Source: a virus. From it: a stretch of DNA of 55,235 nucleotides. Each line of letters opens with the position of its first letter. Position 1 is the stretch's first letter. Made by a program: the position numbers and the translations under genes. Where the stretch lies: IMG/VR virus record IMGVR_UViG_3300015203_000003, positions 1-55,235 of that record. One strand, written 5' to 3'. This document shows positions 1-55,235 of this stretch, in pieces. The notes under the pieces were generated by a model, which did not search any database, was not told the origin of the DNA, and worked only from the letters and a program-made list of their open reading frames with translations.

Positions 1-88
1 CGCGGCAACCAGTGGCACGGCAGCAACGGCTAGCGCCCTCTCCGGAACGAACGGCGCGGTGGCGGCGACGGTAACGGGCTCGAACGTC
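1..88. repeat. Terminal direct repeat, left copy (identical to 55148..55235)
   Basis: The first 88 nt read base for base the same as the last 88 nt. The repeat lies inside an open reading frame. Confidence 0.95.
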
Positions 89-4905: not shown

Positions 4906-5652
4906 ATGGGAAAAGAAATAACGGTTAAGGAACTCGAATTGGCACGCATGCCGGAGCCATCTGTTGGCGCTCTTATGCAACAGGTTGTCAGCGCCGGGAT
5001 TACGCCTGACACGGTTTCGGTTATGAAAGACCTCATCGCCATGAAAAACGACTTGGAGGAGCGCGAGGCGAGGAAGGATTTTGCGCGGGCCTTCGTTCAG
5101 ATGCAAAAAGAGATGCCGAGCGTTAAGGCGATCAAAGCCGTCATGGACGGCGACAAGGTGCGCTACTATTTCGCGCCCTTCGAGCACATCAGGGAAGAGG
5201 CACGCCCGATACTTACAGCCAACGGGTTTGCCGTATCCTTCGATACGAAAGTGGAAGACTCCCGGCTAATTTCGTTCTGCACCCTCACTCACGAGGGAGG
5301 CCACTCGCAGACCAATCAGTTTGCCTGCCGGTACACGAAGCCTCCCGGAACGAGCGATGCGCAGGGCGATATGTCCACGAAGTCTTACGCGATGCGTGGG
5401 GCGTTCTGTGACGCCTGCGGCATCGTTATCGACAAGGATACGGATGGTGACGACGTGCGCGGGCTGGGCGGCAAGGTGACGCCACAGCAGGCCGAATCCC
5501 TCCGCAAGCGCGTCCGCGACACGGAATCGGACGAAGCCCGGTTTTTGAAGTACGCTGGGGCCGACGACTTTGAAGACATCGATGAAGCCCGATATTCTCT
5601 TCTCGACTCGCACCTATCCAAAAAGGAGGCCGAGAATGCCAAAGGTTTTTAA
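4906..5652 (+). CDS. ERF-family single-strand annealing protein
   Basis: KVRYYFAPFEHIREEARPILTANGFAVSF and STKSYAMRGAFCDACGIV resemble the ERF core motifs. The gene is followed by an exonuclease gene. Confidence 0.7.
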   Translation: MGKEITVKELELARMPEPSVGALMQQVVSAGITPDTVSVMKDLIAMKNDLEEREARKDFARAFVQMQKEMPSVKAIKAVMDGDKVRYYFAPFEHIREEARPILTANGFAVSFDTKVEDSRLISFCTLTHEGGHSQTNQFACRYTKPPGTSDAQGDMSTKSYAMRGAFCDACGIVIDKDTDGDDVRGLGGKVTPQQAESLRKRVRDTESDEARFLKYAGADDFEDIDEARYSLLDSHLSKKEAENAKGF

Positions 5653-18810: not shown

Positions 18811-18917
18811 AAACCCCGAGCCCCAGCACCACGCACTGCGCCCGCAACGAGCACCAGACGCTCTGCGGCCACGAGGTAGCGACTGGAACCCGGATCGTGG
18901 GTGGTGGGCTACTTTGA
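18807..18917 (+). pseudogene. 5' fragment of a small Zn-ribbon phage gene, truncated by transposon insertion
   Basis: ATG 18807 overlaps the methyltransferase stop (ATGA). The frame runs into the transposon inverted repeat and stops at 18915-18917. The remainder of the gene is at 22087..22149. Confidence 0.7.
18892..18899. repeat. Target-site duplication GGATCGTG, left copy
   Basis: Identical 8-mer at 22079..22086, directly outside the inverted repeats. Confidence 0.8.
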
Positions 18918-18919
18918 AA
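18900..18919. repeat. Terminal inverted repeat GGTGGTGGGCTACTTTGAAA
   Basis: Matches the reverse complement of 22059..22078 (GGTAGTGGGCTACTTTGAAA) at 19 of 20 positions. The GGT(G/A)nTG start is IS1-like. The transposase stop codon lies within it. Confidence 0.8.
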
Positions 18920-19751
18920 TTGTACCGGCACAGAGAATCCCGACCATCTCTTCAAGGCTCCAAACGTGCTGTGCGACACCGGCTTCCATCGCGGGGGTGA
19001 CGCGGAGGGTCTGATGGATGCGGCAAAAATTGTAATGCATGAAGTAAATCGCCAGCGCGTGCTCGTGGTTTTCCAGCTTCTTTGAAAAGGCGTTCGTCAA
19101 CCTCGTGAACCGGCGCATTCCCATCCTCATGCTGAGGTTCTGGCGTTCGGCAAAGCTCGTGGAGATGTGCTTGCGATCCGGCTTGCCGGTCATAGTGGTT
19201 TTCCTAGCCCCCATGCAGATAGCGGGGCTGTAACGCGTTTGTGGGCCGGTTGGCAGATTGCCGTAGAGTTTCACGAGCCGCCCGTAATCAATGTCATTCC
19301 CGAACACATCATCCACGGCGGAGATGTAGGCGTGGTGTCCGTCCGTTGTCAGTTGGACGCGATGGGCAAGACGCCCGGCTAGATCGTGCATGAAGTGGTA
19401 CGCGGAATCGGCATTGCGCGGGCCAACAAACCAGCAAGGGACAAGCTTCGTGTCCGCGTCGATTGCCGTCCAGGTCCAGGCATCACCCCATCCCATTCCT
19501 TTTTGCTCTGTGGTGGCGTTCTTCTCCTTCGCTCCCACAAACGCCCAAATTTCATCGGCTTGCAGGCGCTTGCATTTGAGGTCGCGAAAAACGCGATCCT
19601 GATAGGCGGAACAAGCCGCGCCCATCTCTACCAGGAGACGGGAAACAGTTTTCTTGGCAAACCCGGTCATGCGGCAGGTAGCGCGGAGGCTGTTTCCCTC
19701 GACCATGCACGCAACGATCTTGGCGCGTTCTTCGGTGCTCAACTTGTTCAT
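18909..19751 (-). CDS. IS1-family DDE transposase (single-ORF type)
   Basis: N-terminal HTH (EERAKIVACMVEGNSLRATCRMTGFAKKTVSRLL). WTWTAIDADTKL, QLTTDGHHAY and STSFAERQNLSMRMGMRRFTRLTNAFSKKLENH...RIHQTLRVTPAM match IS1-type transposases from memory. Confidence 0.75.
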   Translation of the reverse strand: MNKLSTEERAKIVACMVEGNSLRATCRMTGFAKKTVSRLLVEMGAACSAYQDRVFRDLKCKRLQADEIWAFVGAKEKNATTEQKGMGWGDAWTWTAIDADTKLVPCWFVGPRNADSAYHFMHDLAGRLAHRVQLTTDGHHAYISAVDDVFGNDIDYGRLVKLYGNLPTGPQTRYSPAICMGARKTTMTGKPDRKHISTSFAERQNLSMRMGMRRFTRLTNAFSKKLENHEHALAIYFMHYNFCRIHQTLRVTPAMEAGVAQHVWSLEEMVGILCAGTISK

Positions 19752-19760
19752 GGGTCTAAT

Positions 19761-19780
19761 ATGCTTAGGCGTCTAAGCAT
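19761..19780. promoter_or_regulatory. Near-perfect 20-bp palindrome ATGCTTAGGCGTCTAAGCAT between the transposase and Panacea genes
   Basis: 8-bp arms ATGCTTAG/CTAAGCAT around GCGT, within the 103-nt divergent intergenic region. Confidence 0.4.
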
Positions 19781-19854
19781 TGTCAACGGGATTTTAAAAT
19801 ATTTGCGTACTGGTACGGTTCTTGGTAAGCTCTACTGGAGAGACAACTGTTCAA

Positions 19855-20400
19855 ATGAACATTAAATTAACCGGATTTACCGATAAACTGGAGGAACTTG
19901 TCCTGTACATCATCGCGATGTCGGAACGAGACCCACGGTTTATGTGCACCAAATTGAACAAGCTGGTTTGGGCTGCCGATTTCGCGTGTTTCTGCGAAAC
20001 CGGCAGCACGATCACTGGCGCAAATTATCAGCGCCAGAAATTCGGACCCGTTCCCAAGGCTATGCCAATCATTCTGGGGCGACTTGAGCGGGAGGGGCGA
20101 ATTGAGATGCAGGAGGTGCAGATTGGAACGAAAGTTGGCATTCGGCCAGTCGCCAAGGCCGCGCCCGACATTTCAGCGTTCTCTCAGCGCCAATTGATGC
20201 TCGCCAGCAAGATGGTTGCAGACAACTTCGGCAAGACAGGAACAGAGTTGAGCGAGGAGAGTCATAAAAAATTGGCGTGGAAGGTTCTGGATAATGGCGA
20301 CGAAATTCCGTTTGCTTCGTGGTTCGTTACCGCTCGGAACCCCACCCCTGCCGAAAGAGCTATAGGGTTGGAACTGGAAGCCGCTCTGGAGCAGAACTAA
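19855..20400 (+). CDS. Panacea-domain (DUF4065, SocA/GepA-like) antitoxin-type protein
   Basis: ATG 19855 (the track start at 19822 is TTG). TKLNKLVWAADFACFCETGSTITGANYQRQKFGPVP fits the DUF4065 core as I remember it. Confidence 0.6.
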   Translation: MNIKLTGFTDKLEELVLYIIAMSERDPRFMCTKLNKLVWAADFACFCETGSTITGANYQRQKFGPVPKAMPIILGRLEREGRIEMQEVQIGTKVGIRPVAKAAPDISAFSQRQLMLASKMVADNFGKTGTELSEESHKKLAWKVLDNGDEIPFASWFVTARNPTPAERAIGLELEAALEQN

Positions 20401-21284
20401 ATATCCTCCATCGTAATCTCGCGGGACGCTTCAGGGACCGCAGGGAACTCAGTATGGGGTGCTTGATCGGTATCCTTGAACGCCGCCTTCGCGGCCTTGA
20501 CGGCTTTCTGGGCCCGCTCAAATTGTCGCTTTGAGAACTGCACGAAGTCAACCAAGGCATCAAAATCGTCTGGCGTAAGTTCTTGTCCGGTAAAGACAAG
20601 TGTCGCCTGATTTGCGCCGAGCGGGATGGTGTATTGAGCGAGCATCTTTTGGCCTTGCGGGGCTACGTGAGCGTGTGGCGTGTAATCTGACAATGGATCG
20701 ACGAGGATAAATGGCGGATTCTGCGTCGATTTTGGTTCATTGGCTGGAGGCGGTTGCTCCTGTTGCTGTTTTGGCGTTTCATCCCTGCCTTCATTTTGTA
20801 CCACAGGCGTGCTGCTGGAATCAAGTTTAGCGAAGGTTTTATTTGCCGTATAGGCTTTGGCAACCCGCTTTGCCCTGTCGAGATTGAACCCATTTTGCAC
20901 TAAGTGACTTACGAGAACGTCCTCAGAGCAGTCATTATAGCCATTATACAGGTCCTCAAAGACTTTTGGAGCCAGAGCAGCTTCTCGAATCGCAGTGAGT
21001 GATTGATCGGTACTGGTTGGGTGCAGTATCCGCAAGGAAAGCGAAGTGACCGTGAGCATGCCCTTGGCCCGGTCAATCAGTCCATATTGCGAGAACCCGG
21101 CCAGCAGCGTGAGCGAGCTGCCCGTCAGCCCTGAATACCCCATTGCCCTGCAAGCCACCTCCGGCTTCACAGGTGAGCGCCCTATTTGAGCGTGGAGCTT
21201 TTTGACCCTAGAAATCGCCTCCTCAAGTTCCACCACTGGAGCCCTGGGGCTTCTGTCTTGATTGGCTATATCGTCGTCATTCAT
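20397..21284 (-). CDS. Hypothetical 295-aa protein: winged-helix-like N-terminus, low-complexity linker, unknown C-terminal domain
   Basis: First ATG is at 21284 (the track start at 21401 is GTG). The stop codon overlaps the stop of the convergent Panacea gene. No family recognised. Confidence 0.55.
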   Translation of the reverse strand: MNDDDIANQDRSPRAPVVELEEAISRVKKLHAQIGRSPVKPEVACRAMGYSGLTGSSLTLLAGFSQYGLIDRAKGMLTVTSLSLRILHPTSTDQSLTAIREAALAPKVFEDLYNGYNDCSEDVLVSHLVQNGFNLDRAKRVAKAYTANKTFAKLDSSSTPVVQNEGRDETPKQQQEQPPPANEPKSTQNPPFILVDPLSDYTPHAHVAPQGQKMLAQYTIPLGANQATLVFTGQELTPDDFDALVDFVQFSKRQFERAQKAVKAAKAAFKDTDQAPHTEFPAVPEASREITMEDI

Positions 21285-21445
21285 AAAGCCAACCGTATAA
21301 CGGATTACACGATACCGCAAGCGGCGAATAGAATAAACCGTATCGTGTCCTGAAAATAATGCTTGTGCTCGCCGGAGCTTAGGGTGTATGCCATGTGGCA
21401 CGCTGAGAAATTGGCTCCAAAAAGTTCCGCTATAAACCAGAAATC

Positions 21446-21727
21446 ATGCCCGCCGCACCAAAACGCCCTATGATGAGGGATGTCCGCTCCGAGCTATCGG
21501 TGGACGCCGATCTTGAGCGTATTTATGGGAGTGCGCAGCTTGCGGACGAATGCATGAGGGGCCTAATGACGCTCCTGTCCAAAGATCCAGAATGCGGGAA
21601 GGAAAGTAGCAAAAAGGTCCGGCTGATAGATTCTCAGGGGTCTGGAATCTGGAAGGTCCTCACTTTTTGGTACACTTTCGATGACGAGTATGTGACGATC
21701 CTGAAGGTGGTGGCGAGCGATGGTTAG
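21446..21727 (+). CDS. ParE/RelE-superfamily-like small protein (toxin-like)
   Basis: 93 aa. The C-terminal WKVLTFWYTFDDEYVTILKVVASDG resembles the ParE/RelE C-terminal beta-strands. A TATAAA hexamer ends 9 nt upstream of the ATG. Confidence 0.35.
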   Translation: MPAAPKRPMMRDVRSELSVDADLERIYGSAQLADECMRGLMTLLSKDPECGKESSKKVRLIDSQGSGIWKVLTFWYTFDDEYVTILKVVASDG

Positions 21728-21739
21728 GATTAGGTGACT

Positions 21740-22003
21740 TCAGGATTTCCGCCACCGTTTAGCCGCTCCCTGCTGCGCGATTTCCTTCCGTCTCTCCGGA
21801 GTGAGGTTAGCTGCCCGCATTTTCCCGCCCTTGCTGCCGCCAAGCTTGCCTAGGATGCTGGCGGCCTGACTTCGGAGCCGCTGCTCTTCATCCGTGATCC
21901 TGGGCGTCTCAGGGAGTTTCGCGGGGGGCGAGCCGGTGATCTGCTGGCCGATCCGAAAGGCGGCTTGAACCTCATCCTCTCTCTTGCTTGGGCGTGTAGG
22001 CAT
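21740..22003 (-). CDS. Small basic protein with a KGGKxRAAxLTPERRxEIAxxxAxxRW tail
   Basis: 87-aa ORF with an ATG start, convergent with 21446..21727. The C-terminal motif recurs in uncharacterised prophage proteins as far as I recall. Confidence 0.45.
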   Translation of the reverse strand: MPTRPSKREDEVQAAFRIGQQITGSPPAKLPETPRITDEEQRLRSQAASILGKLGGSKGGKMRAANLTPERRKEIAQQGAAKRWRKS

Positions 22004-22058
22004 GCCTCACAATGCACCCCGCTGGACACCTCGGCAATCCGATTCTAAACTGTACCGG

Positions 22059-22078
22059 TTTCAAAGTAGCCCACTACC
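22059..22078. repeat. Terminal inverted repeat, right copy
   Basis: TTTCAAAGTAGCCCACTACC is the reverse complement of GGTAGTGGGCTACTTTGAAA. Confidence 0.8.
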
Positions 22079-22086
22079 GGATCGTG
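22079..22086. repeat. Target-site duplication GGATCGTG, right copy
   Basis: Identical to 18892..18899. Confidence 0.8.
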
Positions 22087-54804: not shown

Positions 54805-55235
54805 AACGACTTCTTTTATTTCTCGTGCTCCTGATTGCCTGCGCATCGGCCTGGGGCAACACCACGATCTTGAGCGGCTCCGGTTCGGTTGTGCTCTCGG
54901 CGTCGGGTAGCGCGTTACAGGCGAATGGCCTGCCGGTCCAGACCGGGAGCAACACCTTCGATCCGCGCCTGACCGGCACCGGCGTGGCCGCGACTGGGGC
55001 CGGCGGCACGATCTTTTACACGAACGGAGTGCTGCCTGGGGCCCAGGTATCAGGCACCGTCCCAGCAGCCACGGCGAGCGGCAGTGCGACCGTCTCCGGC
55101 TCGGCAGCGCAGAGCGGCACGGCTGGGTACGCGGTGACGAGCGGCAGCGCGGCAACCAGTGGCACGGCAGCAACGGCTAGCGCCCTCTCCGGAACGAACG
55201 GCGCGGTGGCGGCGACGGTAACGGGCTCGAACGTC
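54795..55235 (+). CDS. Tail fibre protein, N-terminal part (open at the window end; continues at 89..1171 on the circle)
   Basis: ATG 54795 with no stop to the window end. Hydrophobic N-terminus MALKRLLLFLVLLIACASAWG, then Ser/Gly/Thr/Ala repeats. Confidence 0.75.
   Translation, partial: MALKRLLLFLVLLIACASAWGNTTILSGSGSVVLSASGSALQANGLPVQTGSNTFDPRLTGTGVAATGAGGTIFYTNGVLPGAQVSGTVPAATASGSATVSGSAAQSGTAGYAVTSGSAATSGTAATASALSGTNGAVAATVTGSNV
55148..55235. repeat. Terminal direct repeat, right copy (identical to 1..88)
   Basis: Base-for-base identity with nt 1-88. Confidence 0.95.

Follow-up and report, generated by a model that had tools for sequence, protein, structure and literature searches.

We analyzed the viral genome record IMGVR_UViG_3300015203_000003 of IMG/VR over its whole length of 55,235 nucleotides (hereafter referred to as the window) with respect to PanA, a stand-alone Panacea (DUF4065) antitoxin-type protein that the original prediction had regarded as an orphan lacking a toxin partner on the same strand. 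As judged by homology, such a same-strand partner of PanA is present in the window, namely a small protein with a predicted ParE/RelE fold encoded further downstream. The two genes probably represent a split type II toxin-antitoxin (TA) pair that is carried as cargo of an IS1-family element in a phage. PanA, the putative toxin gene, a convergent gene encoding a protein of 295 amino acids (aa), a transposase gene, and a gene for an 87-aa protein are all located within one insertion sequence (IS) of 3,179 bp (18900..22078). The order from left to right is inverted repeat, transposase (-), PanA (+), 295-aa gene (-), ParE-like gene (+), 87-aa gene (-), and inverted repeat. The terminal inverted repeats and the target duplication that enclose all five genes had been missed when the sequence was first read.

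The assignment of PanA to the Panacea family was confirmed by a Pfam search, in which the protein matched the profile PF13274 (SocA_Panacea) with 45.1 bits (cut-off 25.7; E = 2.2e-11) over its full length (profile positions 1-113 of 113). The open reading frame (ORF) contains the core peptide TKLNKLVWAADFACFCETGSTITGANYQRQKFGPVP. The 16 homologues of PanA (50-84% identity) share a nearly invariant N-terminus, MNI..., and the ATG at position 19855 agrees with it. The ratio of nonsynonymous to synonymous substitution rates (dN/dS) was 0.10 relative to the homologue at locus L003, which indicates purifying selection on PanA. The PanA subfamily was represented in GTDB genomes by one distant match from the Actinomycetota and nothing else, and it was absent from the IMG/VR contigs searched and from 80 related phage loci. 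A sequence-profile search of the PDB with the PanA family gave nothing useful. PADLOC, NCBIfam, and PHROGs were not informative for PanA, the toxin-fold protein, or the 295-aa protein, and in a blastn comparison of the region with GenBank phages the neighboring methylase was the sole match. The description of the immediate neighborhood also held: the gene upstream of PanA is a divergent transposase gene, and the stop codon of the convergent 295-aa gene downstream overlaps that of PanA at positions 20397-20400.

The evidence for a partner comes from the genomic context of PanA homologues. A small ORF of 83-89 aa on the same strand overlaps the 3' end of PanA in seven of eight independent loci of the subfamily (L004, L005, L006, L008, L009, L010-L012, and L013), with an overlap of about 10-17 nt. 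The homologues are thus associated with toxins rather than being solitary, housekeeping-like genes. A small protein encoded in the window on the same strand as PanA, with its start 1,070 bp past the PanA stop codon and the convergent gene in between, aligns end to end with these overlapping ORFs at 31-47% identity (46% to L004, 41% to L006, and 33% to L005). It comprises 93 aa if translated from the ATG at 21446 and 85 aa from the ATG at 21470, which is the start chosen by the gene caller. The family is characterized by the motif ...ADE..RG....L...P..G....GIWK....YTF.D..V.IL.V. A word-indexed search with the small protein as query returned only the protein itself, and a full phmmer scan was needed to find its relatives: exhaustive over 1.84 billion representatives, it yielded 17 matches, 14 of them 61-99 aa long. 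The nearest relative of the window pair is L004 for both PanA (69% or 73% identical) and the partner (46%). Over 28 locus pairs, the identities of PanA and of the partner co-vary (Pearson r = 0.71), which fits co-inheritance of a cognate pair. The partner ORF of the window is full length, retains every invariant position of the family, and contains no frameshift or stop; its dN/dS relative to L004 is 0.24, with dS being saturated. The claim that PanA has no toxin partner on its own strand is therefore abandoned, since the ORF 21446/21470..21727 (+), named in the original prediction only as a candidate for an assay, is homologous over its full length to the one directly following PanA in its relatives.

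We subsequently turned to the predicted structure of the small protein. An AlphaFold2 model calculated from a 15-sequence alignment (predicted local distance difference test score [pLDDT], 94.4; predicted template modeling score [pTM], 0.83) has the topology b-a-a-b-b-b, that is, one strand followed by two helices and three further strands. The two N-terminal helices are packed on an antiparallel β-sheet, which is the arrangement of the ParE/RelE fold. The best match identified by Foldseek was ParE2 of PaaA2-ParE2 (5cw7/5czf), with a probability of 1.00, E values of 6e-5 to 6e-4, and template modeling (TM) scores of 0.69-0.72. Further matches in the PDB included ParE2 of M. tuberculosis, the ParE proteins of Mesorhizobium and Pseudomonas, RelE, YafQ, and HigB2, and the best 25 were all ParE, RelE, YafQ, or HigB toxins (probability 0.94-1.00). 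At the level of sequence profiles, PF05016 (ParE_toxin) was the commonest Pfam match within the small-protein family, a weak one obtained for 3 of 22 members with a best E value of 0.047, and a PDB sequence-profile search with the toxin family found nothing. The invariant positions of the family are D26, G43, Y68, F70, and V75, and thus do not comprise the histidine and the basic side chains that characterize RNases of the RelE type. Because the best structural matches are ParE proteins and none of these RNase residues is invariant, we lean towards a ParE-like rather than a RelE-like action of the predicted toxin.

The element that carries both genes is bounded by inverted repeats, which match at 19 of 20 positions. 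Their ends, GGTGGTG... and GGTAGTG..., fit GGnnnTG, the pattern of the IS1 family. The terminal 19-mer GGTRGTGGGCTACTTTGAA occurs only twice in the window (18900-18918 and 22060-22078), compared to an expectation of zero from 100 shuffles. The transposase matched PF03400 (DDE_Tnp_IS1) with 29.9 bits (cut-off 24.1), across only 43 residues, and the NCBIfam model transpos_IS1 with 53.5 bits, which is below the cut-off of 100; helix-turn-helix (HTH) matches were obtained for its N-terminal part. It is 44% identical to the transposase of the related element at locus L014 and 48-62% identical to those of other elements with the same repeats. The classical InsA/InsB' organization of two ORFs joined by a frameshift was not found, the transposase being encoded by one ORF of 280 aa; we take it to fit the single-ORF or ISMhu11-like subgroups of IS1 rather than classical IS1. 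Based on the GGnnnTG ends, the 8-bp duplication, and the partial IS1 profile matches, we placed the element in the IS1 family as a passenger-carrying single-ORF form. At the opposite end, the 87-aa protein shows the C-terminal motif LGKLGGSKGGK...RWRK. Homologues are encoded just inside the same repeat at L047, L175, L148, L036, and L165, and KGG-motif ORFs occur at the transposase-distal repeat of L062 and L115 as well. The 87-aa gene is therefore probably part of the IS backbone and not cargo, and its predicted product probably serves the IS as a DNA-binding regulator, comparable in role to InsA. The coordinates of all features are compiled in Table 1.

Table 1. Features of the IS1-family element and of its insertion site in the window
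Feature	Position	Strand	Basis or remark
PanA, stand-alone Panacea (DUF4065) antitoxin-type protein, 181 aa	19855..20400	+	PF13274 match
ParE/RelE-fold small protein (PanT), displaced putative partner of PanA	21446..21727	+	family homology, predicted fold
295-aa protein encoded between PanA and its partner; winged-helix-like N-domain, disordered linker, C-terminal β-hairpin and long helix	20397..21284	-	
IS1-family DDE transposase, 280 aa, single ORF	18909..19751	-	stop codon within inverted repeat
87-aa basic KGG-motif protein, first gene inside the transposase-distal repeat	21740..22003	-	match to PHROG 2384 (no assigned function)
Terminal inverted repeat at the 3' end of the transposase gene, GGTGGTGGGCTACTTTGAAA	18900..18919	+	20 nt, 95% complementary to 22059-22078
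Second terminal inverted repeat, reverse complement GGTAGTGGGCTACTTTGAAA	22059..22078	-	19/20 match with the first
Left target-site duplication, 8 bp, GGATCGTG	18892..18899	.	identical to 22079-22086
Right target-site duplication, 8 bp, GGATCGTG	22079..22086	.	perfect, directly outside the repeat
Sigma-70-like promoter match, TTGACA-17-CATATT	19758..19786	-	consensus scan only, 10/12 positions
5' part of interrupted phage ORF	18807..18899	+	in silico excision
3' part of interrupted phage ORF	22087..22149	+	in silico excision
Expected junction of the empty (element-free) site, GGAACCCGGATCGTG joined to CAACAGGAGCC			

The insertion site could be reconstructed by deleting positions 18900..22086 in silico. 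This restores an ORF of 51 aa, MKTPSPSTTHCARNEHQTLCGHEVATGTRIVQQEPTCRHCAELLRKRRKPL, which shows a zinc-ribbon-like cysteine pattern (HC...C....CRHC). Its stop codon shares nucleotides with the start codon (ATG, 22146) of the following phage gene, to which it is thus translationally coupled. Neither the restored ORF nor a homologue was found beside 80 related phage methylase loci. The replicon carries genes for a terminase, an SU10-type portal and major capsid protein, an ERF recombinase, and a DnaC-like loader, as well as an SNF2-like helicase and an N6/N4 methylase; no integrase was found in the window. By its gene content, the host replicon of the element is an SU10-like phage. The first 88 nt of the window (1-88) are repeated at 55148-55235, which indicates a circular assembly or a terminal repeat, and the phage genome (about 55.1 kb) is therefore probably complete.

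The ends of the element are widespread. The terminal 19-mer was detected in at least 120 contigs from soil and peat metagenomes and in 39 IMG/VR contigs. Among the matches listed, we examined 159 loci with the same repeat (L023-L181) and identified 48 properly oriented repeat pairs spanning 124-4,550 bp, 27 of which are flanked by perfect 8-bp duplications. The small repeat-bounded elements are miniature forms resembling miniature inverted-repeat transposable elements (MITEs), and the large ones hold the transposases mentioned above. The possibility that the 19-mer is part of a conserved cellular gene was considered and rejected, its copies being inverted pairs with 8-bp duplications around transposase genes. 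None of these 159 loci, again among the matches listed, contains PanA, a ParE-like gene, or the 295-aa gene, which indicates that this cargo is particular to the element of the window. Other members of the family were found to carry different genes, which resemble defense or addiction cargo: a restriction-modification pair of BglII-type endonuclease and MT-A70 methylase along with a DUF6932 protein (L141:182-4731), an AAA_16/STAND-like ATPase (L062:17-2101), a ClpP-like SDH protease (L023:5534-7922), and a HARE-HTH protein (L105:1173-3434). One IMG/VR contig (L143) harbors seven copies of the repeat within 13.9 kb. A related element of 3,079 bp (L014:4016-7094) has perfect 19-bp repeats, GGTAGTGTCCTAATTTGAA, and an 8-bp target duplication, CACGATTC. 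It encodes a transposase, two small co-oriented ORFs of 105 and 79 aa, a protein that may be of the ribbon-helix-helix type (5276..5647), and a 309-aa homologue of the 295-aa family; this element may hold another small two-gene module in place of PanA and ParE.

In the window, a stretch of about 1.05 kb (20398-21445) separates PanA from the toxin gene, and a bicistronic, cotranscribed layout is thus not present. We did not find any repeats or duplications flanking this insert (20398-21445), and the sequence ahead of the toxin gene showed no trace of the 3' end of PanA. The 295-aa protein encoded within it has no Pfam match. Its family comprises 64 homologues with lengths of 220-330 aa, in which a variable linker joins a conserved N-terminal domain (about 150 residues) to the conserved C-terminal motif LAQYTIPLGANQATLVFTG..LT.DDFDAL.DFV.F.K.QF. 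Its AlphaFold2 model (pLDDT 83) gave no significant match in the PDB, with weak resemblance to winged-helix proteins of the MarR, DtxR, and IclR type (E >= 0.04), and nothing significant in BFVD. Relative to L014, the dN/dS of the gene is 0.16. A DNA block with 79% identity (window 20478-21365) is located in the L014 element without PanA or ParE, and the homologue encoded there is 82% identical and resides inside a related IS lacking both PanA and the toxin. Another homologue (P0048, 48% identical) is found in phage early regions beside Acb2/Tad1-like genes. Overall, L014 and L015-L022 contain the family in the absence of PanA, and seven of nine PanA loci lack it. The suggestion that the convergent gene could be the partner of PanA is therefore not borne out as a general rule. 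A 256-aa member of the family, accompanied by an 82-aa membrane-like ORF, is encoded at L015:2487-3596, at L017:4001-5110, and likewise at other loci of the group L016-L022. These units in phage early regions end at a solo IS-end-like sequence, TTCAAATTAGGTCACTACC, and lie near Acb2/Tad1-hairpin (anti-CBASS-like) genes, which suggests that the 295-aa family is itself a recurrent IS cargo in phages.

The closest relatives of the window PanA (84% identical) are encoded at L002 (1190-2049) and L003 (1290-2149), where the gene has no partner and borders on a shortened member of the 295-aa family, of which the C-terminal part is left; a DUF932 gene is located downstream. This fragment, a convergent ORF of 107 aa, overlaps the PanA stop codon in the same manner as in the window. 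By hhalign, it could be aligned with the C-terminal half of the family (probability 93%, E = 3e-7). Since this tail-to-tail junction is common to the window and to L002/L003, the connection between PanA and the 295-aa gene predates the split of these lineages. The L002/L003 lineage later lost the toxin and half of the inserted gene. On the other side of PanA, a sigma-70-like match is located just upstream of the transposase start, within the divergent intergenic region that this gene has in common with PanA; we regard it as a consensus match only and not as evidence of function.

Other loci with PanA-toxin pairs are also linked to transposases. An IS1595-type transposase gene is located directly upstream of PanA on the same strand at L008, L010-L012, and L013, and at L009 the upstream position is occupied by an IS1-like transposase that is 33% identical to that of the window; at the latter locus, IS1595 and IS1-like transposases lie side by side. 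Comparison of L010 with L013 revealed a single match of 1,870 bp, which comprises transposase, PanA, and toxin and ends at the toxin stop codon, with unrelated flanks. At L008, imperfect repeats of about 45 nt enclose the same three genes. The IS-end-like sequence GGTAGTGTCCTAATTTGAA also occurs at L013:3751-3769, about 300 bp downstream of the ParE-like gene of this IS1595-linked PanA locus, indicating that two transposon families meet at the same loci.

Taken together, PanA is probably the antitoxin half and the small ParE/RelE-fold protein the toxin of a type II pair. In the ancestral and usual form, the two genes overlap and would be translated together as one operon. In the lineage of the window, they have been moved apart by about 1.05 kb of DNA with the convergent winged-helix gene and its own upstream region, and the 3,179-bp IS1-family element has transposed into the small zinc-ribbon-like ORF of the phage of about 55 kb. 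With a distance of 1.07 kb to PanA, the toxin gene must now be expressed on its own. By analogy to stand-alone Panacea proteins described previously (PMC10440598), PanA would bind and neutralize the ParE-like toxin directly. Through post-segregational or exclusion effects, the pair would act as an addiction or exclusion module that helps the transposon, and by now also its phage or prophage carrier, to be retained. The split pair may still be functional. The idea of a degraded or rearranged pair, one of three readings offered in the original prediction, came closest to this result: the ancestral operon has indeed been physically split, but both ORFs are intact.

A number of observations weigh against this interpretation. 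The small protein of the window has no Pfam match at E <= 1 and hence none to PF05016, and its fold assignment rests on a predicted structure. The translational coupling that is canonical for PanA and its toxin has been lost in the window, and a promoter scan of the + strand, centered on E. coli although the host is probably a soil bacterium, detected no sigma-70-like site in front of the toxin gene. With the coupling lost and no promoter-like site upstream, the toxin gene may be silent. Furthermore, L002/L003, the closest relatives and with the same convergent junction, have no toxin gene within about 1.7 kb, and PanA can therefore persist without a toxin; the window lineage itself may be heading towards an antitoxin-only state. 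The empty target site was not found among public viral contigs in a search of IMG/VR for the exact 26-mer. As for the pairs at other loci, no convincing inverted repeats enclose the trio of transposase, PanA, and toxin at L010 and L013; they are plausible at L008 alone.

Some of these points would also be explained if PanA mainly served in counter-defense by neutralizing a PanT-type toxin of the host, with the ParE-like gene being a silent relic. Phages are known to encode antitoxins against toxins of their hosts, one example being Dmd of T4 (cited in PMC8832971). The PanA of L002/L003 still shows a dN/dS of 0.10 without a toxin gene nearby, and the pair in the window is uncoupled and lacks a promoter-like site ahead of the toxin gene. 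However, the toxin ORF has remained free of any lesion, with all invariant positions kept, and PanA arrived as transposon cargo rather than being a conserved phage gene, as none was found in the 80 related phage loci or the IMG/VR contigs. We therefore consider an antitoxin-only role unlikely. With the putative cognate toxin gene present on the element itself, there is no need to regard PanA as a stand-alone neutralizer of a host-encoded toxin, as had been proposed, but neutralizing a host toxin may be an added effect of PanA.

Alternatively, the convergent winged-helix protein could be a functional third component or partner, acting either as a PaaR-like regulator or via the overlapping convergent 3' ends. 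The stop codons overlap tail to tail both in the window and at L002/L003, the N-terminal domain is winged-helix-like in the model, the toxin in its predicted structure is most similar to ParE2 from the three-gene system PaaR2-PaaA2-ParE2, and three-gene PanAT clusters have been reported (PMC8832971). But the L014 element and nine phage-like loci contain the family and neither PanA nor ParE, seven PanA-toxin loci do not contain it, none of the 159 same-repeat loci among the matches listed has both, and the structural matches to winged-helix proteins are not significant. Such a role for the 295-aa protein is therefore unlikely. The least probable explanation is that the pair is non-functional and consists of decaying remnants: the broken operon speaks for it, as does the loss at L002/L003 of both the toxin and the N-terminal half of the 295-aa gene, but the element has five intact ORFs, the dN/dS values of PanA and of the 295-aa gene are far below 1, and the perfect target duplication together with the near-perfect repeats points to a recent, active element.

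Both the combination of PanA with ParE and the link to transposases are already known. ParE is among the toxin domains that have been paired with Panacea, and many PanATs adjoin transposase genes (Kurata et al. 2022, PMC8832971). Neutralization by direct binding has been reported for other stand-alone PanA proteins (Ernits et al. 2023, PMC10440598), and TA modules are established as cargo of Tn3-family transposons (Lima-Mendez et al. 2020, PMC7157771). New details are the split architecture, the defined IS1-like carrier, and the insertion in a phage gene. As in PanAT systems (PMC8832971, PMC10440598), the Panacea domain stands alone and in the relatives is encoded upstream of a small toxin gene with which it overlaps. 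In contrast to these systems, the genes of the window are 1.07 kb apart with a convergent gene between them, no significant Pfam match exists for the toxin subfamily, which was recognized by its predicted fold only, and the pair is located within a defined insertion sequence in a phage genome.

With ParDE, PaaR2-PaaA2-ParE2, and RelBE, the window pair shares the b-a-a-b-b-b toxin fold (Foldseek matches 5cw7, 8c26, 6x0a, and 3g5o) and a toxin length of about 85-95 aa. The antitoxin, however, is a Panacea protein and not ParD, PaaA, or RelB, and the sequence identity to solved ParE/RelE-type toxins is 12-20%. Regarding the carrier, the partial match of the DDE transposase to IS1 profiles, the GGnnnTG ends, the 8-bp duplication, and the miniature derivatives agree with IS1-family elements with passenger genes, as does the presence of non-transposition cargo in an element of 3.2 kb. 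Differences from the IS1 family are the single-ORF transposase without the InsA/InsB' frameshift, which stays below the NCBIfam IS1 cut-off, and the small KGG-motif gene at the end opposite to the transposase. The element presumably resembles the ISMhu11-type subgroup and the so-called transporter IS. As with the Tn3-family TA transposons (PMC7157771), a type II TA module resides within a transposable element, which it presumably stabilizes; unlike there, the carriers are IS1-like and IS1595-like, the TA type is another one, and the pair of the window is split.

A more far-reaching possibility, to which we attach little probability, is that the split is functional. PanA, the winged-helix gene with its overlapping 3' end, and an independently expressed ParE-fold toxin would then constitute a re-wired three-part module delivered to the phage by the transposon. 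If so, the ratio of antitoxin to toxin might, for example, be set by convergent transcription or by the winged-helix protein, and the phage could use PanA against PanT-type defenses of the host and the toxin for exclusion or addiction. The IS1-like family together with the IS1595-linked PanAT blocks would be a general vehicle moving defense, counter-defense, and addiction cargo between soil bacteria and phages.

Our analysis replaces the false lead of an orphan antitoxin by an IS with cargo that probably transposed recently into a phage genome, itself probably complete. It provides a natural test case for asking if uncoupled genes can still make a working type II TA pair, and it adds a predicted toxin subfamily missed by sequence profiles to the known partners of Panacea. 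The IS1-like family, which is very abundant in soil metagenomes and viral contigs, is relevant to the movement of defense and addiction genes between hosts and phages.

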